64,000 nt of DNA. Origin: Escherichia coli (lineage in GTDB: Bacteria; Pseudomonadota; Gammaproteobacteria; Enterobacterales; Enterobacteriaceae). Both the position numbers and the translations under genes were made by a program. Shown piece after piece: positions 1,687-60,042 of the stretch (position 1 is the stretch's first letter; every line of letters starts with the position of its first letter). Location of the stretch: NCBI RefSeq assembly GCF_003019035.1, contig NZ_CP027447.1. One strand, 5' to 3'. The notes beneath the pieces were generated by a model. The model saw nothing but the letters and a program-made list of their open reading frames with translations. It was not told the origin of the DNA and ran no database searches.

Positions 1687-2496
1687 ATGAGATCGTTAGC
1701 TGATTTCGAATTTAATAAAGCGCCATTGTGCGAAGGCATGATCCTGGCTTGCGAAGCAATCCGCCGCGATTTTCCCTCGCAAGATGTTTACGACGAACTG
1801 GAGCGTCTCGTTAGTCTGGCGAAGGAAGAAATCAGCCAGCTTCTGCCTTTAGAAGAACAGCTGGAAAAACTGATCGCGCTGTTTTACGGCGACTGGGGAT
1901 TTAAAGCCTCACGCGGCGTTTATCGTCTTTCCGATGCATTATGGCTGGACCAGGTGTTAAAGAATCGACAGGGCAGTGCGGTATCATTAGGTGCCGTTTT
2001 ATTATGGGTCGCGAATCGTCTCGATTTGCCGCTGCTGCCGGTGATTTTCCCTACGCAGCTGATATTGCGCATTGAATGTCCGGATGGCGAAATTTGGCTG
2101 ATTAATCCTTTTAACGGTGAATCGTTAAGTGAACATATGCTGGATGTGTGGTTAAAGGGAAATATCAGCCCGTCGGCGGAACTGTTTTATGAAGACCTTG
2201 ATGAAGCTGATAACATTGAGGTAATCCGCAAATTGCTGGATACACTCAAAGCCTCGTTGATGGAAGAAAATCAGATGGAGCTGGCGCTACGTACCAGCGA
2301 AGCTTTATTACAATTTAACCCGGAAGATCCCTATGAAATTCGCGATCGCGGGTTGATTTATGCGCAACTGGATTGCGAACACGTTGCGTTGAACGATTTA
2401 AGTTATTTCGTTGAACAGTGTCCGGAAGACCCGATCAGCGAAATGATCCGTGCGCAAATAAATAACATCGCGCATAAACATATTGTGCTGCATTAA
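1687..2496 (+). CDS. ychA: SirB1/YchA family protein (transglutaminase-like/TPR)
   Basis: 269-aa ORF directly after ychQ; conserved synteny prfA-prmC-ychQ-ychA-kdsA. Confidence 0.85.
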   Translation: MRSLADFEFNKAPLCEGMILACEAIRRDFPSQDVYDELERLVSLAKEEISQLLPLEEQLEKLIALFYGDWGFKASRGVYRLSDALWLDQVLKNRQGSAVSLGAVLLWVANRLDLPLLPVIFPTQLILRIECPDGEIWLINPFNGESLSEHMLDVWLKGNISPSAELFYEDLDEADNIEVIRKLLDTLKASLMEENQMELALRTSEALLQFNPEDPYEIRDRGLIYAQLDCEHVALNDLSYFVEQCPEDPISEMIRAQINNIAHKHIVLH

Positions 2497-2522
2497 TTAA
2501 TCGACATTTTACTCAAGATTAA

Positions 2523-3386
<864 letters not shown>

Positions 3387-3408
3387 TCTTTTTTGCTTGA
3401 AAAATAAA

Positions 3409-3438
3409 GTCTTAGCGTTCTGCGTTAAGACTTTTTTC
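3409..3438 (+). terminator. rho-independent terminator downstream of kdsA
   Basis: 9-bp stem GTCTTAGCG/CGTTAAGAC (one G-U) with 5-nt loop followed by TTTTTT. Confidence 0.7.
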
Positions 3439-3452
3439 ATGGGTGCCGGATA

Positions 3453-3485
3453 CAAAAAAGGCCGCAGGCTATTACCCCTGCGGCC
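3453..3485 (-). terminator. rho-independent terminator of ldr mRNA
   Basis: Perfect 8-9 bp stem GGCCGCAGG/CCTGCGGCC followed on the minus strand by a T-run (A-run 3453-3459 on plus); lies ~50 nt downstream of the ldr stop. Confidence 0.65.
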
Positions 3486-3534
3486 GGTTTCGGGCGCATA
3501 TTGCCATCACGGCAGCCTGACGCCCGTTTTCACC

Positions 3535-3642
3535 TTACTTCCGGTTACGCCACCAGCTGACAATCGCTGCGGTAATAATTCCCGCCAGGATCGGTGCTGC
3601 CAGGTCGTACCAGAAAGTCATGGCAAACTGCGTGAGCGTCAT
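3535..3642 (-). CDS. ldr: Ldr-family type I toxin peptide (35 aa)
   Basis: Hand translation of minus strand: MTLTQFAMTFWYDLAAPILAGIITAAIVSWWRNRK*; matches the LdrA/B/C small hydrophobic toxin; located between kdsA and chaA where ldr/rdl copies reside in E. coli; not in ORF track because under 60 aa. Confidence 0.85.
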   Translation of the reverse strand: MTLTQFAMTFWYDLAAPILAGIITAAIVSWWRNRK

Positions 3643-3689
3643 ATAGCCGCCTTGTTGTAATGACAACATTTTGCGGCTATTCTTGAATT

Positions 3690-3758
3690 GTTCTGGTTCA
3701 AGATTAGCCCCCGTTCTGTTGTCAGGTTGTACCTCTCAACGTGCGGGGGTTTTCTCTT
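3690..3758 (+). ncRNA. rdl: putative Rdl antisense RNA of the ldr locus (boundaries approximate)
   Basis: Plus-strand hairpin CCCCCG...CGGGGG followed by TTTTCTCTTTCC at about 3708-3760, antisense to the ldr 5' leader; position and size consistent with known ~66-nt Rdl RNAs; 5' end not determined. Confidence 0.4.
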
Positions 3759-4046
3759 TCCAGCAACCAATGCCACCAGGGATAAAGCCCCCGCAACATT
3801 GCGCCTCACCGGATAACTCCGGCTTGGTGTGGATACTACGTCTCAATTCATCTTCACTTCATCCCTGAAATGTTTGCAATGAAGAGTACATTCCGGCTTT
3901 TCAACAGCTGTTGCAGTGGTTTCGTGCAGGTTGTGGTACAGGCTCGCAATTCTGATTAACGACCTGTTCAGGTAGTATGAAGAAATACAATAAGCAGGAA
4001 TTTATATTATCTCCCCCGATTTTCGTCATCGGAGGAGATATAACTG

Positions 4047-5147
4047 TCAGGCAAATATCGTCATCAAATAGGCGGCAAACAGTGCCAGATGCGCTGCGCC
4101 ATTGAGCACGTTAGTACGTCCGGTGGAGAAGGAGATATGGCACAGCACTAAAGAGGCCACCATCACCACCATTTCTGGCGCACCAAGTGCAAACTGCAAT
4201 TCGTTACCCGTCATAAAGGCAATTAGCGTGACGACAGGTACGGTAAGCGAAATGGTTGCTAACACTGAACCAAAGAACAGATTCATCGCGCGCTGGACCT
4301 GGTTGTTCAACACTGCTTTTAACGCACCTAAACCTTCCGGCGACAGAATCAACAGAGCCACCAGGAAGCCAGTAAAGGCGACAGGGGCATTCATGCTGTC
4401 GAGCAATGTCTCCAGCGGGCTGGCGTTCATTTTGGTGACTGCAATAACGGCAATCAGATGGATAATCAACCAGATAGCATGCCACAGGCTGCTATGGGCA
4501 GACGGTTTACCGTGGTGCGGGTCGTCATCATCACTGTCATCTTCGTGCTCGTAGACAAACAAACTTTGATGCGTTTTGGTCTGGATCAGCAAAAATACGC
4601 CATACATTGCCGCAGAAATTAATGCTACCAGTAACGCCTGACCGGTTGAAAAATTCGCCGCAGGCAGAGCCATTGGAAATACCAGTACGATTATCGCCAG
4701 GGGGAACAGCGCAATTAAATACTGCTTGATACCAAACAGATTCATATATTGGGTGGCAAACTTGCGTCCGCCCAACAATAATGAAAAGCCAACCAGCCCA
4801 CCGGTAACAATCATAATGATTGAATAGAGCGTATCACGCATTAGCGTTGGCGCGGCGTCGCCGGTTGCCATTAAAGCTGAAATCAAACTGACTTCAAGAA
4901 TAACCACTGAAAGGCTAAGAATAAGCGAACCGTAAGGTTCTCCCAGGCGATGGGCTAATACGTCCGCATGACGGACAACACTAAAGGCGCTACTTAAAAT
5001 ACCAATAAGAGCAAGAAGATTGATGGCAATGACCACTGGTAGTGTCTGGCTGCTTCCCCACAGGAACAGCACTACCAGCGCCAGAACCGGGAAAATAAGC
5101 GAAGTCTCCTTGTGGCGGGTTTTTACCGCCTCTTGAGCATTTGACAT
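4047..5147 (-). CDS. chaA: Na+(K+)/H+ / Ca2+/H+ antiporter ChaA
   Basis: ORF track 4047..5234 trimmed to ATG at 5147 (MSNAQEAVKTRHKETSLIFPVLALVVLFLWG...), giving 366 aa; polytopic membrane protein with acidic DDSDDDD loop. Confidence 0.93.
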   Translation of the reverse strand: MSNAQEAVKTRHKETSLIFPVLALVVLFLWGSSQTLPVVIAINLLALIGILSSAFSVVRHADVLAHRLGEPYGSLILSLSVVILEVSLISALMATGDAAPTLMRDTLYSIIMIVTGGLVGFSLLLGGRKFATQYMNLFGIKQYLIALFPLAIIVLVFPMALPAANFSTGQALLVALISAAMYGVFLLIQTKTHQSLFVYEHEDDSDDDDPHHGKPSAHSSLWHAIWLIIHLIAVIAVTKMNASPLETLLDSMNAPVAFTGFLVALLILSPEGLGALKAVLNNQVQRAMNLFFGSVLATISLTVPVVTLIAFMTGNELQFALGAPEMVVMVASLVLCHISFSTGRTNVLNGAAHLALFAAYLMTIFA

Positions 5148-5416
5148 TATGGTTATCCCTTTGCAGATGAATTTATCGAAAATGTAAAAAATAGGTAGGA
5201 AAAATAACAGAAAGTGTCTGGATATCGGTAACATTTTACGAATTTTTACCCCGCTGTCGATTTTTTACTCATCGGGCCATAAAAATAAGCAATGCGTTTA
5301 GACAATGTTTGTTTTAGCACTTCTTAAGAAGAGTCTGACATGAAAATTCTTATGTTTTGGCAAGAGTAGATGTTGTTGACCACACTTAATGTTCAACTTT
5401 GTAAAAGGAGTCAACG

Positions 5417-5647
5417 ATGCCGTATAAAACGAAAAGCGATCTGCCGGAAAGCGTAAAGCACGTGCTTCCGTCTCATGCCCAGGATATCTATAAAGAAGCG
5501 TTCAACAGCGCATGGGATCAATATAAAGATAAAGAAGATCGGCGTGATGACGCCAGTCGCGAAGAAACAGCGCATAAAGTGACCTGGGCTGCTGTGAAGC
5601 ATGAATATGCCAAAGGGGATGATGATAAATGGCATAAAAAATCGTAA
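5417..5647 (+). CDS. chaB: cation transport regulator ChaB
   Basis: 76-aa ORF MPYKTKSDLPESVKHVLPSHAQDIYKEAF...; divergent from chaA. Confidence 0.9.
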   Translation: MPYKTKSDLPESVKHVLPSHAQDIYKEAFNSAWDQYKDKEDRRDDASREETAHKVTWAAVKHEYAKGDDDKWHKKS

Positions 5648-5804
5648 AACCGGTAGCTTAGTTAAAGCTATTCGTGCGGTGTTGCCTTGCAAGTGGTCCG
5701 TGGATTGCATATTGTCCCGTTAGTGGTTTCAAAATGAGCAGTAAAAATGTCCGGAAGACACCAAAAAGTTGTCGCAGGGAAGTATGCAGTGGCGGAGGTG
5801 TAAG

Positions 5805-6500
5805 GTGATAACGCGTGATTTCTTGATGAATGCCGATTGTAAAACGGCATTTGGTGCCATTGAAGAATCACTCTTATGGTCAGCAGAACAACGGGCGGCT
5901 TCGCTGGCGGCGACGCTGGCTTGTCGACCTGATGAGGGACCGGTGTGGATCTTCGGTTATGGATCGTTGATGTGGAATCCGGCACTGGAGTTTACCGAGT
6001 CGTGCACCGGTACACTGGTTGGATGGCATCGCGCGTTTTGCCTGCGTCTGACCGCCGGGCGCGGGACTGCGCACCAGCCGGGACGAATGCTTGCACTGAA
6101 AGAGGGCGGACGCACCACAGGCGTCGCCTATCGACTGCCAGAAGAGACGCTGGAGCAGGAACTAACCCTGTTGTGGAAGCGCGAGATGATTACCGGCTGT
6201 TATCTGCCAACCTGGTGTCAGCTTGATCTTGATAATGGACGCACAGTAAACGCCATTGTGTTTATTATGGACCCGCGACATCCAGAATATGAATCTGACA
6301 CTCGCGCTCAGGTCATCGCGCCGTTGATTGCGGCGGCGAGCGGTCCGCTGGGAACCAATGCACAATACCTGTTTTCACTGGAACAGGAGCTTATCAAACT
6401 GGGAATGCAGGACGATGGGCTGAATGATTTGCTGGTATCGGTAAAAAAACTGCTGGCGGAGAATTATCCGGATGCTGTGTTACGGCCGGGATTCGCCTGA
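5805..6500 (+). CDS. chaC: glutathione-specific gamma-glutamyl cyclotransferase ChaC
   Basis: ORF track 5769..6500; ChaC-like sequence (VWIFGYGSLMWNP motif); start ambiguous among TTG 5769, ATG 5784 and GTG 5805. Confidence 0.88.
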   Translation: MITRDFLMNADCKTAFGAIEESLLWSAEQRAASLAATLACRPDEGPVWIFGYGSLMWNPALEFTESCTGTLVGWHRAFCLRLTAGRGTAHQPGRMLALKEGGRTTGVAYRLPEETLEQELTLLWKREMITGCYLPTWCQLDLDNGRTVNAIVFIMDPRHPEYESDTRAQVIAPLIAAASGPLGTNAQYLFSLEQELIKLGMQDDGLNDLLVSVKKLLAENYPDAVLRPGFA

Positions 6501-13038: not shown

Positions 13039-16000
13039 ATGAGTAAATTCCTGGACCGGTTTCGCTACTTCAAACAGAAGGGTGAAACCTTTGCCGATGG
13101 GCATGGCCAGCTTCTCAATACCAACCGTGACTGGGAGGATGGATATCGCCAGCGTTGGCAGCATGACAAAATCGTCCGCTCTACCCACGGGGTAAACTGC
13201 ACCGGCTCCTGCAGCTGGAAAATCTACGTCAAAAACGGTCTGGTGACCTGGGAAACCCAGCAGACTGACTATCCGCGTACTCGCCCGGACCTGCCAAACC
13301 ATGAACCTCGCGGCTGCCCGCGCGGTGCCAGCTACTCCTGGTATCTTTACAGCGCCAACCGCCTGAAATACCCAATGATGCGCAAACGCCTGATGAAAAT
13401 GTGGCGTGAAGCGAAGGCGCTGCATAGCGATCCGGTTGAGGCATGGGCTTCTATCATTGAAGACGCCGATAAAGCGAAAAGCTTTAAGCAGGCGCGTGGA
13501 CGCGGTGGTTTTGTTCGTTCTTCCTGGCAGGAAGTGAATGAACTGATCGCCGCCTCTAACGTTTACACCATCAAAAACTACGGCCCGGACCGTGTCGCTG
13601 GTTTCTCGCCAATTCCGGCAATGTCGATGGTTTCTTACGCATCGGGTGCACGCTATCTTTCGCTGATTGGCGGTACTTGCTTAAGCTTCTACGACTGGTA
13701 CTGCGACCTGCCTCCTGCGTCTCCGCAAACCTGGGGTGAGCAAACTGACGTACCGGAATCTGCTGACTGGTACAACTCCAGCTACATCATCGCCTGGGGT
13801 TCAAATGTGCCGCAGACGCGTACCCCGGATGCTCACTTCTTTACTGAAGTGCGTTACAAAGGGACCAAAACTGTTGCCGTCACACCAGACTACGCTGAAA
13901 TCGCCAAACTGTGCGATCTGTGGCTGTCACCGAAACAGGGCACCGATGCGGCAATGGCGCTGGCAATGGGTCACGTAATGCTGCGTGAATTCCACCTCGA
14001 CAACCCAAGCCAGTATTTCACCGACTATGTGCGCCGCTACACCGACATGCCGATGCTGGTGATGCTGGAAGAGCGCGACGGTTACTACGCTGCGGGTCGT
14101 ATGCTGCGCGCTGCTGATCTGGTGGATGCACTGGGCCAGGAAAACAATCCGGAATGGAAAACTGTCGCCTTTAATACCAATGGCGAAATGGTTGCGCCGA
14201 ACGGTTCTATTGGCTTCCGCTGGGGCGAGAAGGGCAAATGGAATCTTGAGCAGCGCGACGGCAAAACTGGCGAAGAAACCGAGCTGCAACTGAGCCTGCT
14301 GGGTAGCCAGGATGAGATCGCTGAGGTGGGCTTCCCGTACTTTGGTGGCGACGGCACGGAACACTTCAACAAAGTGGAACTGGAAAACGTGCTGCTGCAC
14401 AAGCTGCCGGTGAAACGCTTGCAACTGGCTGATGGCAGCACCGCACTGGTGACCACCGTTTATGATTTGACGCTGGCAAACTATGGTCTGGAACGTGGCC
14501 TGAACGACGTTAACTGTGCAACCAGCTATGACGATGTGAAAGCTTACACTCCGGCGTGGGCCGAGCAAATCACTGGCGTTTCTCGTAGCCAGATTATCCG
14601 TATTGCCCGTGAATTTGCCGATAACGCTGACAAGACGCACGGTCGTTCGATGATTATCGTCGGTGCGGGGCTGAACCACTGGTATCACCTCGATATGAAC
14701 TATCGTGGTCTGATCAACATGCTGATTTTCTGCGGCTGTGTCGGTCAGAGCGGGGGCGGCTGGGCGCACTATGTAGGTCAGGAAAAACTGCGTCCGCAAA
14801 CCGGCTGGCAGCCGCTGGCGTTTGCCCTTGACTGGCAGCGTCCGGCGCGTCACATGAACAGCACTTCTTATTTCTATAACCACTCCAGCCAGTGGCGTTA
14901 TGAAACCGTCACGGCGGAAGAGTTGCTGTCACCGATGGCGGATAAATCCCGTTATACCGGACACCTGATCGACTTTAACGTCCGTGCGGAACGCATGGGC
15001 TGGCTGCCGTCTGCACCGCAGTTAGGCACTAACCCGCTGACTATCGCTGGCGAAGCGGAAAAAGCCGGGATGAATCCGGTGGACTATACGGTGAAATCCC
15101 TGAAAGAGGGTTCCATCCGTTTTGCGGCAGAACAACCAGAAAACGGTAAAAACCACCCGCGCAACCTGTTCATCTGGCGTTCTAACCTGCTCGGTTCTTC
15201 CGGTAAAGGTCATGAGTTTATGCTCAAGTACCTGCTGGGGACGGAGCACGGTATCCAGGGTAAAGATCTGGGGCAGCAGGGCGGCGTGAAGCCGGAAGAA
15301 GTGGACTGGCAGGACAATGGTCTGGAAGGCAAGCTGGATCTGGTGGTTACGCTGGACTTCCGTCTGTCGAGCACCTGTCTCTATTCCGACATCATTTTGC
15401 CGACGGCGACCTGGTACGAAAAAGACGACATGAATACTTCGGATATGCATCCGTTTATTCACCCGCTGTCTGCGGCGGTCGATCCGGCCTGGGAAGCGAA
15501 AAGCGACTGGGAAATCTACAAAGCCATCGCCAGGAAATTCTCCGAAGTGTGCGTTGGTCATCTGGGTAAAGAAACCGACATCGTCACGCTGCCTATCCAG
15601 CACGACTCTGCCGCTGAACTGGCACAGCCGCTGGATGTGAAAGACTGGAAAAAAGGCGAATGCGACCTGATCCCAGGTAAAACTGCACCGCACATTATGG
15701 TCGTAGAGCGCGATTATCCGGCGACTTACGAACGCTTTACCTCTATCGGCCCGCTGATGGAGAAAATCGGTAATGGCGGTAAAGGGATTGCCTGGAACAC
15801 CCAGAGCGAGATGGATCTGCTGCGTAAGCTCAACTACACCAAAGCGGAAGGTCCGGCAAAAGGTCAGCCGATGCTCAATACCGCAATTGATGCGGCAGAG
15901 ATGATCCTGACACTGGCACCGGAAACCAACGGTCAGGTAGCCGTGAAAGCCTGGGCTGCCCTGAGCGAATTTACCGGTCGTGACCATACGCATCTGGCGC

Positions 16001-54909: not shown

Positions 54910-56799
54910 ATGGCAGGGATATATCGCTGCATTTTGCTGTTGATAGTTGGGCTTTTTTTCTCTTCGTTGAGTTATGCGAAAAACACGGAGATCCCTTCTT
55001 ATGAAGAAGGGATCTCGCTCTTTGATGTTGAAGCCACTCTGCAACCGGATGGGGTGCTCGACATCAAAGAAAATATTCATTTTCAGGCGCGAAATCAGCA
55101 GATTAAGCACGGATTTTATCGTGATTTACCACGACTCTGGATGCAGCCTGATGGGGACGCTGCACTGCTGAACTATCATATTGTTGGCGTCACCCGTGAT
55201 GGTATTCCTGAACCCTGGCATCTTGACTGGCATATCGGGTTAATGAGTATTGTCGTGGGCGATAAACAACGTTTCTTGCCTCAAGGCGACTATCATTATC
55301 AAATTCATTATCAGGTTAAAAATGCTTTCCTGCGTGAAGGGGATTCTGATCTGCTAATCTGGAACGTGACCGGTAACCACTGGCCGTTTGAAATTTATAA
55401 GACCCTATTTTCACTCAAGTTGCCTGATATTGCGGGTAATCCATTTAGCGAAATCGATCTCTTTACTGGAGAAGAGGGCGACACATATCGAAATGGCCGC
55501 ATCCTTGAGGACGGAAGAATTGAATCCCGCGATCCGTTTTATCGTGAAGATTTCACGGTACTCTACCGCTGGCCTCACGCTTTACTTAGCAATGCCCCGG
55601 CTCCACAAACGACGAATATTTTCAGCCATCTTCTTTTACCCTCCACGTCATCGTTGTTAATTTGGTTTCCTTGTCTATTCCTGGTTTGTGGATGGTTATA
55701 TCTCTGGAAGCGCAGGCCGCAATTTACGCCGGTAGATGTGATTGAAACCGATGTCATTCCGCCAGATTACACGCCCGGCATGTTACGTCTCGATGCGAAG
55801 CTGGTTTACGATGATAAAGGTTTTTGTGCCGATATCGTAAATCTGATTGTGAAAGGAAAAATTCATCTGGAAGATCAGTATGATAAGAACCAGCAAATCC
55901 TGATTCGTGTTAATGAAGGCGCGACCAGAAATAATGCGGTATTACTGCCCGCAGAGCAGTTATTACTGGAAGCGTTATTTCGTAAAGGCGATAAGGTCGT
56001 TCTTACGGGGAGACGCAACATAGTCTTACGCAGGGCATTTTTACGGATGCAGAAATTTTATCTGCCGCGTAAAAAGTCTTCGTTTTATCGACCAGATGCG
56101 TTTTTGCAATGGGGTGGACTGGCAATATTGGCGGTCATTCTCTACGGTAACCTGAGTCCCGTAGGTTGGGCAGGAATGAGTCTGGTAGGCGATATGTTTA
56201 TTATGATCTGCTGGATTATTCCTTTTTTATTTTGTTCCCTTGAGCTTTTGTTTGCCCGCGATGATGACAAGCCTTGCGTTAATCGTGTAATCATCACTTT
56301 GTTTTTACCGCTGATTTGTTCAGGCGTGGCCTTTTACTCTCTCTATATCAATGTCGGAGATGTATTCTTTTACTGGTATATGCCAGCGGGTTATTTTAGC
56401 GCTGTTTTCCTGACCGGCTATCTCACTGGCATGGGGTATATTTTTCTGCCAAAGTTTACCCAAACTGGGCAGCAACGTTATGCCCACGGTGAAGCTATCG
56501 TTAACTATCTTGCGCGTAAAGAGGCAGCAACACACAGTGGGCGTCGGCGGAAAGGGGAAACACGGAAACTGGATTACGCGTTGCTAGGTTGGGCAGTCTC
56601 GGCAAACCTTGGCAGAGAATGGGCAGCACGTATCACGCCGTCACTCACAGCGGCTGTTCGCGCCCCGGAAATTGCCCGTAGTGGCGTTTTATTCTCATTA
56701 CAGACGCACCTGAGTTGCGGGGCCTATACCAGTTTGTTGGGGCGGAGCTATTCCGGTGGTGGTTCTGGCGCTGGTGGCGGAGGCGGTAGTGGCTGGTAA
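54910..56799 (+). CDS. yciQ: DUF2207-family membrane protein YciQ
   Basis: 629-aa ORF with signal peptide, several TM helices and Gly-rich C-terminal tail (GGGSGAGGGGGSGW). Confidence 0.85.
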   Translation: MAGIYRCILLLIVGLFFSSLSYAKNTEIPSYEEGISLFDVEATLQPDGVLDIKENIHFQARNQQIKHGFYRDLPRLWMQPDGDAALLNYHIVGVTRDGIPEPWHLDWHIGLMSIVVGDKQRFLPQGDYHYQIHYQVKNAFLREGDSDLLIWNVTGNHWPFEIYKTLFSLKLPDIAGNPFSEIDLFTGEEGDTYRNGRILEDGRIESRDPFYREDFTVLYRWPHALLSNAPAPQTTNIFSHLLLPSTSSLLIWFPCLFLVCGWLYLWKRRPQFTPVDVIETDVIPPDYTPGMLRLDAKLVYDDKGFCADIVNLIVKGKIHLEDQYDKNQQILIRVNEGATRNNAVLLPAEQLLLEALFRKGDKVVLTGRRNIVLRRAFLRMQKFYLPRKKSSFYRPDAFLQWGGLAILAVILYGNLSPVGWAGMSLVGDMFIMICWIIPFLFCSLELLFARDDDKPCVNRVIITLFLPLICSGVAFYSLYINVGDVFFYWYMPAGYFSAVFLTGYLTGMGYIFLPKFTQTGQQRYAHGEAIVNYLARKEAATHSGRRRKGETRKLDYALLGWAVSANLGREWAARITPSLTAAVRAPEIARSGVLFSLQTHLSCGAYTSLLGRSYSGGGSGAGGGGGSGW

Positions 56800-57009: not shown

Positions 57010-57885
57010 ATGAGCGAAAAGCTACAGAAAGTGCTGGCGCGTGCCGGCCACGGCTCTCGCCGTGAAATCGAATCTATTATTGAAGCCGGTCGTGTGAGTG
57101 TTGATGGCAAAATTGCTAAACTCGGCGATCGCGTTGAAGTTACCCCTGGATTGAAAATCCGTATCGATGGTCACCTGATTTCGGTACGTGAGTCCGCTGA
57201 ACAAATTTGTCGCGTTCTGGCCTATTACAAACCGGAAGGTGAGTTGTGTACCCGTAACGATCCGGAAGGACGTCCAACGGTGTTTGACCGTCTGCCAAAA
57301 CTGCGTGGCGCACGCTGGATTGCCGTGGGTCGCCTGGACGTTAATACCTGTGGTCTGCTGCTGTTCACCACCGATGGTGAACTGGCAAACCGTTTAATGC
57401 ACCCAAGCCGTGAAGTTGAACGTGAATATGCCGTGCGTGTATTTGGTCAGGTTGACGACGCGAAACTGCGTGATTTGAGTCGTGGCGTGCAGTTGGAAGA
57501 TGGTCCGGCAGCCTTTAAAACCATCAAGTTCAGCGGCGGCGAAGGGATCAACCAGTGGTACAACGTTACTCTGACCGAAGGCCGTAACCGTGAAGTTCGT
57601 CGTCTTTGGGAAGCGGTTGGTGTGCAGGTGAGCCGCCTGATCCGTGTTCGTTACGGTGATATCCCACTGCCAAAAGGTCTGCCACGCGGTGGCTGGACGG
57701 AGCTGGACCTCGCCCAGACTAACTATCTGCGCGAACTGGTGGAGCTACCGCCAGAAACCAGCTCTAAAGTCGCTGTAGAAAAAGACCGTCGTCGCATGAA
57801 GGCGAATCAGATTCGTCGTGCGGTGAAACGTCACAGTCAGGTGAGCGGCGGTCGTCGTTCTGGCGGACGTAATAATAACGGTTAA
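57010..57885 (+). CDS. rluB: 23S rRNA pseudouridine(2605) synthase RluB
   Basis: 291-aa ORF with S4 domain and RsuA-type catalytic motif; Arg/Gly-rich C-terminus. Confidence 0.93.
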
Positions 57886-57906
57886 TTTAAGTTAAGTATA
57901 AAATAA

Positions 57907-57929
57907 AGGCCCTGCGGGGCCTTTTCTTC
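57907..57929 (+). terminator. rho-independent terminator after rluB
   Basis: Perfect stem AGGCCC/GGGCCT with TGCG loop followed by TTTCTTC. Confidence 0.7.
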
Positions 57930-58054
57930 ATTTGAAGTATGATAAATAGTCGCAGTATTTTAATTTAATTTCATACTTGCTTATGAATATTACCAGGAAA
58001 TAGCCACATTACTATTTAATTATCTGAGATAAACTCAACGTCAAGAGGTGGGTT

Positions 58055-59077
58055 ATGATTAGATATAGTGGAATATTTCTATCGCTGTTAATGCTTTCAG
58101 GTTGTGCAACCGAAGCATTGAAGAATGAACAAGCTGAAACTGTTATTACTGCGGGTAACAAGGCGGTTGCGGCGAATGCAAGTTTCTTTAAACAATACTA
58201 TGCTTCTCGTGAAAATTTCCTTGTTAATTTTTATGCGACTAATCCGGATTGTGCATTGCGACCTGATTATGAAACGATTATGGAAAATAATACTAATAAA
58301 GAGTCCTTATGTATGCAATCAGAGAAAGGGGACAAAACATCGTATAAAGACGTTACTAAAGTTCAATTGGCAACAACAGAAAAACAAAAGCTACTGGCTT
58401 CACTTGAGGTCGTTAACAGTATGAGCTCCTATGTGGAGTTGTTGACGGTGGATATGGATGTTGACGATAGTAAACAAATTATATTACTTAATCAGGCGCT
58501 CGATCATGCAAACAACGCCCAAAAACTACTTGGACTTTCAGAAGGTGAAGAACTGACTAAGTCAGCTGTAGCTGTTAAAGATTTAGTTCAATATTTCAAT
58601 GGATTATATAAAGAGAAGATTAAATCAGAAAATGTTGGTAAAACGGTAGGTAGTGACTGGCCACGACTTCAAAGAAATTTACAAGATTTACTTGAAGATA
58701 TAGCAACGAAACAGCAGCAAATGGATCGGAATAATTTTGCGAACATCAGTAATAATTTTTATTACTATAATAAGGCCCGGGAAAATACTAAAAATATAGA
58801 ATTTAAGACATTAAAGAGCAGGCAGGAATTTTTGAGTGCAGTAATTAATCTTAATGAAAGCAGATTGCGTTCATCTGATCCGGCGGCTCCAGCAATACAA
58901 GCTATTAATGCCTTCATGGATAAAGGAAATCATCTACAAGATTTATACTCTAATAAATCTCTTTCAAAAGCGGATTTAGAGCGTAGGAATGAGATCCTGC
59001 GTGCTCAAGTTATTAGTGGTCTTCAGGCGTCAGAGGAGCTGGCAAAACTTCTTATTGCCAGCGGAGTTATGTTATAG
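58055..59077 (+). CDS. predicted lipoprotein of unknown function (340 aa)
   Basis: ATG preceded by AAGAGGTG RBS; N-terminus MIRYSGIFLSLLMLSGC has a signal peptide with LSGC lipobox (Ala at +2, not Asp); remainder Asn/Lys/Gln/Glu-rich, likely helical; no family recognisable by eye. Confidence 0.7.
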   Translation: MIRYSGIFLSLLMLSGCATEALKNEQAETVITAGNKAVAANASFFKQYYASRENFLVNFYATNPDCALRPDYETIMENNTNKESLCMQSEKGDKTSYKDVTKVQLATTEKQKLLASLEVVNSMSSYVELLTVDMDVDDSKQIILLNQALDHANNAQKLLGLSEGEELTKSAVAVKDLVQYFNGLYKEKIKSENVGKTVGSDWPRLQRNLQDLLEDIATKQQQMDRNNFANISNNFYYYNKARENTKNIEFKTLKSRQEFLSAVINLNESRLRSSDPAAPAIQAINAFMDKGNHLQDLYSNKSLSKADLERRNEILRAQVISGLQASEELAKLLIASGVML

Positions 59078-59086
59078 GAGGTCATT

Positions 59087-59395
59087 ATGAACGATGTGCA
59101 AAATCGACGAATACTGGCATTGCTCAATATGCTGTACTATGCCTTAGGAAACCGAACAACTTGCGATATATGTCACAAATATTTTATTCTGGTTTTGTCG
59201 GTAATGAATAATCTGACAATTAATTATGGCTCGCAAACGTCACCAGAACTGACTGGTATTAGTTATGAAGATGCTAATGATTTGATCACTGAATTAATAC
59301 TGTTTATTGAAGACGTCAATGCGGATAATGACATGGAATATCCCGCACACTTGAATAAAATTCAAGCTCTTCTTAATTTTGCCGTGGCTAATTAA
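59087..59395 (+). CDS. small acidic cytoplasmic protein of unknown function (102 aa)
   Basis: ATG 5 nt after AGGAGG RBS that overlaps the stop of the preceding lipoprotein gene (translational coupling); no signal peptide; CDICH motif and acidic C-terminal half. Confidence 0.65.
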   Translation: MNDVQNRRILALLNMLYYALGNRTTCDICHKYFILVLSVMNNLTINYGSQTSPELTGISYEDANDLITELILFIEDVNADNDMEYPAHLNKIQALLNFAVAN

Positions 59396-59416
59396 GCCAT
59401 TCAGTATCTAAAATTA

Positions 59417-59445
59417 GCACCTCAAGAGGCGATCTTTTGAGGTGC
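59417..59445 (-). terminator. hairpin downstream of btuR (probably bidirectional terminator)
   Basis: Inverted repeat GCACCTCAAGA...TCTTTTGAGGTGC immediately after btuR stop and after the cassette's second ORF. Confidence 0.55.
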
Positions 59446-59451
59446 TTTCCC

Positions 59452-60042
59452 TTAATAATCAATCCCTATTTGCGCCTTAACACCGGCATCAAACGCATGT
59501 TTGATGGGGCGCAGCTCACTCACCGTATCCGCCAGTTCAAGAATATCCCGATGACAGCCTCGACCCGTGATAATCACCGTCTGTTGATGTGGACGTTCAT
59601 TTAACGCCTGCACCACTTCTTCCAGTGGCAAATAGTCATACGCCACCATATAAGTCAGCTCATCGAGCAAAACCATATCCAGTGAAGGATCGGCCAGCAT
59701 TCGTTTGGCATGTTGCCAGACTTCACGGCAGGCCGCGGTATCAGATTCGCGATTTTGTGTATCCCAGGTAAAGCCCGTTGCCATCACCTGAAACTCAACG
59801 CCATGTGGCTCCAGTAGATTGCGCTCGCCATTAGGCCAGGTGCCTTTAATAAACTGCACGACGCCCACTTTTTTGCCATGGCCTACTGCACGAGTTGCCG
59901 TACCAAATGCCGCGGTGGTTTTGCCTTTTCCATTGCCGGTAAAGACGATGATAATACCGCGTTCATCCTGGGCCTGGGCCACACGAGCATCGACTTTTTC
60001 TTTCACTCGCTGCTGACGCTGTTGGTAGCGTTCATCACTCAT
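59452..60042 (-). CDS. btuR: corrinoid adenosyltransferase BtuR/CobA
   Basis: 196-aa ORF with P-loop-like GNGKGKTTAAFG. Confidence 0.93.
   Translation of the reverse strand: MSDERYQQRQQRVKEKVDARVAQAQDERGIIIVFTGNGKGKTTAAFGTATRAVGHGKKVGVVQFIKGTWPNGERNLLEPHGVEFQVMATGFTWDTQNRESDTAACREVWQHAKRMLADPSLDMVLLDELTYMVAYDYLPLEEVVQALNERPHQQTVIITGRGCHRDILELADTVSELRPIKHAFDAGVKAQIGIDY

Follow-up and report, generated by a model that had tools for sequence, protein, structure and literature searches.

Among the described systems that come closest to the locus reported here are the moron-encoded exclusion lipoproteins (Cor of phages phi80 and N15, Llp of T5 and Ltp of Streptococcus phage TP-J34), the SitA/SitI pairs of Myxococcus, and the lipoproteins labelled DUF3829 or imelysin-like. 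SitA toxins are reportedly lipoproteins whose immunity gene lies downstream. A lipoprotein is also a component of one experimentally validated anti-phage system of Escherichia coli, and P2-like prophages are major carriers of defense systems (Vassallo et al., bioRxiv 10.1101/2022.05.12.491691). In the present study, an AT-rich two-gene cassette located between rluB and btuR was analyzed in a 64,000-nucleotide stretch of an E. coli genome (assembly GCF_003019035.1, contig NZ_CP027447.1), hereafter called the window. Its first open reading frame (ORF1) encodes a lipoprotein and its second (ORF2) a small acidic partner. Based on the letters of the DNA and on comparison with related loci, this module is tentatively read as a system for phage superinfection exclusion at the level of the envelope, or for defense against invading elements.

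With Cor, Llp and Ltp the ORF1 product shares an AT-rich add-on gene, a presumed action at the envelope and a patchy distribution. It differs from them in showing no sequence similarity (searches of PHROGs, of GenBank phages and of BFVD were each negative), in being far larger (340 amino acids (aa), all helical by prediction), in being accompanied by a gene for a cytoplasmic partner, and in lying outside prophages in Escherichia. The SitA/SitI pairs are alike in combining an outer-membrane lipoprotein with a small protein encoded downstream, in mobile carriage and in allelic diversity, whereas the locus studied here has no modular toxin swap, no toxin domain, no co-variation of the partner and no SitB-like third gene. 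Similarity to the DUF3829/imelysin-like lipoproteins consists of size (approximately 330-350 aa), a lipoprotein signal and a predicted elongated bundle of several helices, whereas the ORF1 family has a signature of its own, made up of two conserved Cys and a Tyr. Neither ORF product matched PADLOC v2.0.0, which we take to include the PD-* systems of the Vassallo et al. screen, and this sets the pair apart from the lipoprotein system reported there. The P2 hotspots described in bioRxiv 10.1101/2022.05.12.491691 are located elsewhere than the gpS-gpV site at which a related pair was found in Buttiauxella (see below).

The following features were assigned, with coordinates given in the window.

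58055-59077, + strand: ORF1, lipoprotein gene, 340 aa (ORF list)
59087-59395, + strand: ORF2, gene of the acidic partner, 102 aa (ORF list)
58045-58052, + strand: Shine-Dalgarno sequence of ORF1, GAGGTGGG, found by direct reading; all aligned loci share GGTGGG
59076-59081, + strand: Shine-Dalgarno sequence of ORF2, AGGAGG, read directly; 5 nt separate it from the ORF2 ATG, and it shares bases with the ORF1 stop codon (59075-59077)
58265-58375, + strand: hypervariable, indel-rich loop or beta-hairpin of the lipoprotein, approximately residues 71-107, bracketed by C66 and C86; breakpoint at about 58270
57947-57955, + strand: conserved non-coding block TAGTCGCAG, invariant in 9/9 aligned Escherichia and Citrobacter loci
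57970-57979, + strand: conserved non-coding block TTCATACTTG, invariant in the same 9/9 loci
57905-57924, + strand: rluB terminator hairpin (AAAGGCCCTGCGGGGCCTTT followed by a run of T) from the terminator scan; left edge of the cassette-specific DNA
59416-59446, both strands: hairpin terminator common to ORF2 (+) and btuR/cobO (-), inverted repeat I1; right edge
57010-57885, + strand: rluB, left flank of the cassette
59452-60042, - strand: btuR/cobO, right flank, convergent with ORF2

The interval is a self-contained accessory operon with a conserved upstream region, two coupled genes and a terminator of its own. Strong Shine-Dalgarno sequences precede both ORFs, which are separated by only 9 nt, and the overlap of AGGAGG with the ORF1 stop codon suggests translational coupling of the two genes. 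On re-reading the sequence, the two ORFs, their coordinates, the lipobox with Ala at +2 and the coupling at AGGAGG proved to be as given in an earlier reading of the window, made without database searches (the sequence-only reading). That the cassette lies between the terminators of rluB and btuR was borne out by two stable hairpins. The hairpin following rluB has a folding energy of -14.4 kcal/mol (z -2.9) and its stem was kept in 9/9 aligned Escherichia and Citrobacter loci; the shared hairpin at 59416-59446 reaches -20.4 kcal/mol (z -5.3) on the + strand and -17.5 kcal/mol on the - strand. Identity to the second E. coli allele (type B, below) and to E. albertii is regained only from approximately 59440.

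Base composition sets the interval apart from its surroundings. The cassette (57886-59451) has a GC content of 36.1%, with 36.6% in ORF1 (29.6% at third codon positions, GC3) and 35.6% in ORF2. The window as a whole has 49.5%, and the flanking genes rluB and btuR have 51-54%. Line by line (60 nt each), GC content averaged 35.8% and ranged from 21.7 to 46.7%, the minimum being that of the first line, starting at 57930. The AT-rich contrast described in the sequence-only reading is thus clear and well beyond chance, whereas its figure of 25-28% GC was too low.

Upstream of ORF1, a spacer of 170 nt holds four invariant blocks in Escherichia and Citrobacter: the rluB hairpin, TAGTCGCAG, TTCATACTTG and the Shine-Dalgarno sequence. 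Both TAGTCGCAG and TTCATACTTG occur once, at a start-to-start distance of 23 nt, upstream of the pair in 15/15 Escherichia and Citrobacter loci; neither was found upstream of the distant homologues. Since these blocks are invariant while synonymous sites are saturated between the genera, the blocks are constrained, and 57947-57979 may serve the operon as a promoter or other regulatory region. Scanning for sigma-70 promoters upstream of ORF1 yielded no canonical or good promoter. A partial sequence resembling an RcsAB box, TATGAATATTACCA, was also seen upstream; it is not kept even between strains with the type A allele and was treated as a chance occurrence. Likewise, a match to the Rfam family SraG was insignificant (22.9 bits versus a gathering score of 50, E 0.39).

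Following sensitive blastn searches that included the variable part of the cassette, 1234 of 5426 complete E. coli genomes (22.7%) were found to carry it, and 4183 (approximately 77%) had the empty junction of the K-12 type. In K-12 MG1655 only 39 bp separate rluB from btuR, confirming the adjacency stated in the sequence-only reading; this short gap holds a different hairpin, and in carriers the cassette takes the place of the entire K-12-type spacer without leaving a scar. Across the interval used as query, the window and E. coli strain SCU-301 are 100% identical. Carriers include strains of sequence type 131 (ST131; e.g., EC958) and a strain named ST38, and the K-12 and O157 genomes among the matches listed have an empty junction. 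The pair is therefore accessory, as had been proposed, and is not a ubiquitous unit of ordinary GC content. Neither an integrase or transposase ORF near the cassette, in the ORF list of the window, nor direct or inverted repeats flanking it were found, which agrees with the earlier account; scanning the cassette interval for repeats revealed two short direct repeats attributable to chance, neither of them at the cassette flanks. An integrase-mediated genomic island was rejected on these grounds, as there is neither an integrase or transposase ORF nor a flanking att-type repeat.

The cassette is old at this site. Searching 5.8 billion proteins, close homologues (identity of at least 54%) were obtained from Escherichia (E. 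coli, E. albertii and unclassified members) and a few Citrobacter only, and at every locus retrieved for them the pair occupied the identical site between rluB and btuR. This site is filled in E. albertii, E. whittamii, another Escherichia lineage (locus L011) and, rarely, in Citrobacter; among GTDB species representatives, carriers were E. whittamii and E. albertii only. Synonymous divergence (dS) and the ratio of nonsynonymous to synonymous divergence (dN/dS) were estimated according to Nei-Gojobori, mainly for the window versus E. albertii. In this comparison dS was 0.79 for ORF1 and 0.51 for ORF2, with 0.70 for rluB and 0.83 for btuR on either side. As the dS of the cassette matches that of its flanks, the cassette most likely occupied the rluB-btuR site before E. 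coli and E. albertii diverged from their common ancestor. The empty state of K-12, shared with approximately 77% of E. coli genomes, looks like a later loss of the cassette or its exchange for an empty allele. The low GC content was kept in all lineages (35-45% for the module versus 52-59% for the adjacent rluB) and is therefore a lasting property of the module that gives no sign of recent arrival.

That foreign DNA was inserted recently into the rluB-btuR junction of this particular strain is accordingly very improbable. Such an event would fit the composition (36% GC versus approximately 50%, GC3 30%), the missing cassette in K-12 and 77% of the E. coli genomes, and the fact that relatives elsewhere are cargo of mobile elements. 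Against this, the same site is filled in E. albertii, E. whittamii, the L011 lineage and Citrobacter, the dS versus E. albertii equals that of the flanks, which by itself largely refutes a recent arrival, the upstream non-coding motifs are kept across genera, and the low GC content is stable in each lineage without integration scars. From the proposal of a horizontally acquired insertion, the accessory, AT-rich unit without a copy in K-12 is therefore retained, and a simple recent insertion is not, given the dS values and the shared site.

Both genes are maintained by purifying selection on the evidence of their substitution patterns. The dN/dS was 0.10-0.27 for ORF1 and, versus E. albertii, 0.15 for ORF2, about tenfold above the values for the flanking genes (0.01-0.03).

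Within Escherichia the lipoprotein gene occurs in three deeply diverged types. The window carries type A, strain D7 carries type B (333 + 102 aa), and type C belongs to another Escherichia lineage. Sliding-window comparison of types A and B showed an identity of 97-100% across rluB, the region upstream of ORF1 and its first 72 codons, followed at approximately 58270 by a sharp fall to 41-74%, from which identity is restored only at approximately 59440. Similarly, megablast matches for about 400 genomes end at base 385 of the query, corresponding to 58270. Synonymous divergence between A and B changes at the same point: dS is 0.04 for codons 1-72 and 1.6 (saturated) for the remainder, versus 0.08 for the flanks. 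This alignment evidence places an intragenic recombination breakpoint between the allele types at about 58270. Beyond residue 72 the three types are mutually 57-59% identical, and to the Citrobacter proteins they are 48-54% identical, nearly the same distance as between types. Judging from these identities, types A, B and C have been joined by recombination to a common 5′ part. Across species boundaries, the lipoproteins of E. coli type B and of E. whittamii share 97% identity.

Among the 1234 carriers, 775 matched the window at an identity of at least 95% and 459 at 60-80%, with zero in between; because the band of 80-95% identity is empty, chimeras of A and B downstream of codon 72 are missing from these carriers. 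Partners of type B and type C are 89-93% identical, versus only 58-59% for their lipoproteins, and on these alignments the partner is more conserved than the lipoprotein and does not strictly track its type. As a separate observation, many database entries for the E. coli type B lipoprotein (P0016-P0026), including some from complete chromosomes, are N-terminally short (224-293 aa), starting near residue 53 without a signal peptide, which may reflect gene decay or miscalled start codons.

The ORF1 protein starts with MIRYSGIFLSLLMLSGC-ATE and has the lipobox LSGC, with Cys17 as the lipidation site position and Ala at +2. Its signal MIRYSGIFLSLLMLSG followed by C conforms to the pattern for signal peptidase II, and this Cys is invariant in 37 family members. 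Exemption from sorting to the outer membrane by the Lol system needs Asp at +2. At this position Asp was never found, neither in 10 relatives checked individually nor in the 37-sequence alignment, and from its +2 Ala the ORF1 lipoprotein is predicted to be sorted to the outer membrane. Only four residues are invariant in the 37-sequence alignment (C17, C66, C86 and Y126). Each relative checked has exactly three conserved Cys and no transmembrane segment, a pattern that fits an exported, disulfide-bonded protein, presumably with a C66-C86 disulfide. The least conserved segment, with indels, comprises residues 71-100 (alignments A2 and A4), and the C-terminal 30 residues are among the best conserved. 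Structure prediction with AlphaFold2 on nine close homologues gave an unusable model (predicted local distance difference test score (pLDDT) of 44) and improved only when the 37-sequence alignment was supplied; the resulting model (pLDDT 77.8, predicted template modeling score 0.74) consists mostly of long helices.

Searches of Pfam, NCBIfam, PADLOC, PHROGs and PDB sequences gave nothing above noise for either protein, in line with the earlier remark that neither shows a recognizable motif. In short, no member of the 37-sequence lipoprotein family matched Pfam, toxin domains included; PADLOC-DB v2.0.0 had no match for either protein at E values up to 1; and PHROGs returned noise at the level of the signal peptide only (E of at least 0.04), with nothing for the distant members. 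Literature searches on DUF3829, on the locus and on the accessions of its proteins brought up no relevant work. A unimolecular spanin, which combines a lipobox with a hydrophobic C-terminus, was considered and rejected: the hydrophobic run comprises approximately 12 residues, lies below the transmembrane level on the KD19 scale and is missing in the high-GC members.

The ORF2 protein is acidic (isoelectric point (pI) 4.38, net charge -7.3) and has neither a signal peptide nor a transmembrane segment, so that its earlier description as an acidic protein that is not exported holds. Residues C26, C29, H30 and H88 are invariant among the Escherichia and Citrobacter partners; this Cys/His set is missing from the distant partners. 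The presence of an N-terminal 'NRRILALL' and of C-D-I-C-H raised the candidate of a c-type cytochrome exported by the Tat or Sec pathway. It was rejected, as its hydrophobic stretch scores low (maximum KD19 1.06) and both RR and CxxCH are missing in the Buttiauxella homologue and in all distant partners, which have charged, amphipathic N-termini.

For the detection of more distant relatives, a profile of nine lipoproteins was compared with 1.84 billion cluster representatives. This yielded 54 matches, of which approximately 35 were full length (324-357 aa, 16-25% identity). The named sources are Buttiauxella agrestis, Raoultella, Klebsiella, Rahnella, Pantoea, Methylomonas and a metagenome-assembled genome of the Chlorobiaceae, all with the protein annotated as hypothetical; relatives also came from environmental bacteria and soil metagenome sequences. 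Contigs were examined for six distant members, and in five of them an ORF of 96-107 aa follows on the same strand, 1-25 nt downstream. This two-gene layout recurs in relatives dispersed among the Proteobacteria. In the sixth, a high-GC member (locus L018, 2171-2980), the downstream ORF encodes 269 aa with an Ala-rich N-terminal part and three or four predicted membrane helices; this product may represent a partner anchored in the membrane, or the gene may be unrelated. Partners are acidic (pI 4.4-5.0) in 8 of 10 pairs and have no export signals. Homology to ORF2 was detected for the partner in the Buttiauxella prophage (hhalign probability 87%, E 3.7e-6); the remaining distant partners align with one another and not detectably with ORF2, and a common homology of all partners is therefore unproven, though position, size and charge are conserved.

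Several of these relatives reside in mobile elements. The Buttiauxella pair lies within a P2-like prophage with a gpS-like and a gpV-like gene on either side, and its GC content of 33-40% inside prophage DNA of 55-62% is the classic moron arrangement. In P2 this is the position of the non-essential orf30. The pair of R. ornithinolytica (features at 5340-6272 and 14818-15486 of locus L030) is part of an island with an integrase, two AlpA genes and IS110, and is located 3.7 kb from a gene for an FRG-domain protein matching the PADLOC candidate PDC-S15 (E 2e-52); a DUF3800 gene, a weakly AbiC-like gene and HicB belong to the same island. In Methylomonas the pair adjoins VapBC, Fic and an IS200-type transposase. 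Copies with at least 90% identity are found in Raoultella, Klebsiella and Rahnella, which points to recent transfer. No relatives were detected in GenBank phages (tblastn), in IMG/VR viral contigs or in BFVD (Foldseek). Location as a moron in a prophage is thus a feature of one distant relative, that of Buttiauxella, and of no Escherichia or Citrobacter locus, the window included.

Under the favored reading, exclusion or defense at the envelope, the lipoprotein would be the exposed, diversifying component that bears specificity; phage or other foreign proteins would be detected or stopped by it, either at the outer membrane or within the periplasm. Translated together with it, the cytoplasmic partner would serve as a stoichiometric helper that holds the prolipoprotein before export or acts on the cytoplasmic side. 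A lipoprotein with a dedicated chaperone, as suggested in the sequence-only reading, is possible. The contexts in mobile elements and defense islands, the trans-species diversification at an exposed loop and the predicted sorting to the outer membrane point weakly to exclusion or defense, and the validated system of Vassallo et al. provides a precedent for a lipoprotein component. Diversification of this kind is typical of conflict loci, as seen from types that are 57-59% identical, a saturated dS next to flanks at 0.08, and a variable loop bracketed by Cys. A further and more doubtful extension of the same reading is that the pair founds a new, mobile-element-borne envelope system of Proteobacteria, in which an outer-membrane lipoprotein with a disulfide-stapled loop would recognize or block phage or foreign proteins, the partner would serve biogenesis or signaling, and types A, B and C would form a balanced trans-species polymorphism. 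What can be said plainly is that the module is uncharacterised and falls outside all curated families; an unusual mechanism is not demonstrated, and the module is a candidate rather than a demonstrated novelty.

Three other functions were weighed against this proposal. An accessory module for envelope physiology, consisting of a helical-bundle lipoprotein of the imelysin-like or DUF3829 type (binding a metal or ligand, or acting in stress) and a partner that binds metal through its Cys and His or acts as a chaperone, is unlikely. It draws on Foldseek, in which, close relatives aside, the top AFDB50 matches were lipoproteins 329-349 aa long that carry the labels DUF3829, imelysin-like or PilJ/NarX-like (E 3e-10 to 1e-2, TM score of at most 0.66), on the conserved Cys pair, which suits a stable periplasmic protein, on the invariant C26, C29, H30 and H88 of the partner, and on long residence at one chromosomal site with a conserved regulatory region. 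The matches labelled DUF3829 or imelysin-like are, however, probably members of the same family with transferred labels, and no member matches DUF3829 or Peptidase_M75 in Pfam. Membership of the DUF3829/YiiG family (PF12889) was rejected, since neither the query nor the 37 members gave a Pfam match and hhalign against E. coli YiiG covered the signal peptide only (residues 1-23). The same holds for the imelysin-like family (Peptidase_M75, PF09375), for which there is no Pfam match and no conserved G-x-H-x-x-E, leaving a resemblance at the fold level only. His-x-x-Glu or any other invariant polar residue for catalysis or binding is missing, the Cys/His set of the partner does not extend to distant partners, and the combination of patchy distribution, mobile carriage and extreme allelic divergence would be unusual for a physiological role. 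Even less expected is a toxin-immunity pair resembling SitA/SitI or a bacteriocin, with an outer-membrane lipoprotein toxin passed to neighbors by vesicles or contact and an acidic immunity partner protecting the producer. The order of an exported lipoprotein and, 9 nt further on, a small acidic protein without signal, a layout kept in 8/10 pairs, would agree with it, as would deep alleles that combine a common N-terminal part with a diverged rest, and the mobile-element contexts. Yet all 37 members are homologous over their full length, including the part after residue 72, with no swap of an unrelated C-terminal part; no Pfam toxin domain was found in any of them, and the C-terminal 30 residues, far from being variable, are well conserved. 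The high similarity of type B and type C partners beside strongly diverged lipoproteins gives no tracking of type, and no homology of the distant partners to ORF2 could be detected.

Polymorphic toxin-immunity systems of the contact-dependent inhibition (CDI), Rhs or SitA/SitI type were consequently rejected, as neither a domain swap nor co-variation of the partner was found. Type II toxin-antitoxin systems were rejected as well: here the larger protein is exported, and no toxin-antitoxin domain of Pfam or NCBIfam was found in either protein. The functional guesses of the sequence-only reading thus fared differently, with modest contextual support for phage exclusion or defense and none of the swapping or co-variation that a strict toxin-immunity pair would display. 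The least probable of the functions considered is a factor for host interaction, e.g., one that confers resistance to serum, acts in adhesion or is a surface antigen, comparable to the lipoproteins Bor, Iss and TraT of prophages and plasmids and diversified under immune pressure. The pair does occur in extraintestinal pathogenic lineages (ST131 and the strain named ST38) and not in K-12 or the listed O157 genomes, and predicted outer-membrane sorting, a hypervariable loop and deep alleles would be in keeping with exposure to a host. The association with lineages may nevertheless be mere phylogeny, relatives occur in environmental bacteria (Methylomonas, Buttiauxella and soil metagenomes), no similarity to Bor, Iss or TraT was found in the libraries searched, and the partner would be left unexplained. 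Exclusion or defense at the envelope was kept as the tentative preference.

Both proteins are 'hypothetical' in RefSeq, yet they are under purifying selection, approximately 23% of complete E. coli genomes (ST131 among them) encode them, and the gene pair is conserved from Enterobacteriaceae to Methylomonas. Three deep alleles and an empty allele at one fixed site constitute a natural experiment, for which K-12 offers a ready null background. If exclusion or defense is true, the module would represent a lipoprotein-based, envelope-level class missed by current defense-finding tools, with relevance to phage therapy of extraintestinal pathogenic E. coli. If instead it acts in toxin-immunity or host interaction, it would be a new determinant of competition or virulence in the B2 and D lineages. 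Whatever the function, the locus with its trans-species alleles and intragenic breakpoint usefully illustrates how a junction in the core genome is shaped by balancing selection over long times or by the import of alleles.

Some further observations concern the junction and its neighborhood. Plasmid carriage of the cassette was considered and rejected: CP054249.1 ('plasmid pBone4_2', locus L019) is a frameshift-ridden piece of chromosome with the order trpD-trpL-rluB-btuR, and its frameshifts gave rise to a spurious '41.6% identical homologue'. CP054253.1 and NZ_CP134663.1 (a 4.9-Mb record), both from PLSDB, look like similar mislabelled chromosome pieces, CP054249.1 being the only record inspected. 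In one genome the cassette is present twice; the record holding one of the copies is labelled a plasmid and may be another assembly artefact. In E. coli Ec-U3, which has no cassette, IS1 is located in the same rluB-btuR spacer (NZ_CM192149.1; 3069-3766 of locus L004). On the other side of rluB, E. coli has yciQ (DUF2207, 46.9% GC; 54910-56799 in the window), flanked by yciO and rluB. The gene is missing at that position in E. albertii and Citrobacter (3235-4831 of locus L012 and 4232-5828 of locus L006), where the yciO-rluB gap is approximately 100 nt, and it is split into ORFs of 413 aa and 230 aa in the Escherichia lineage with allele C (1841-3743 of locus L011). The yciQ gene thus constitutes a second presence/absence polymorphism adjoining the cassette.

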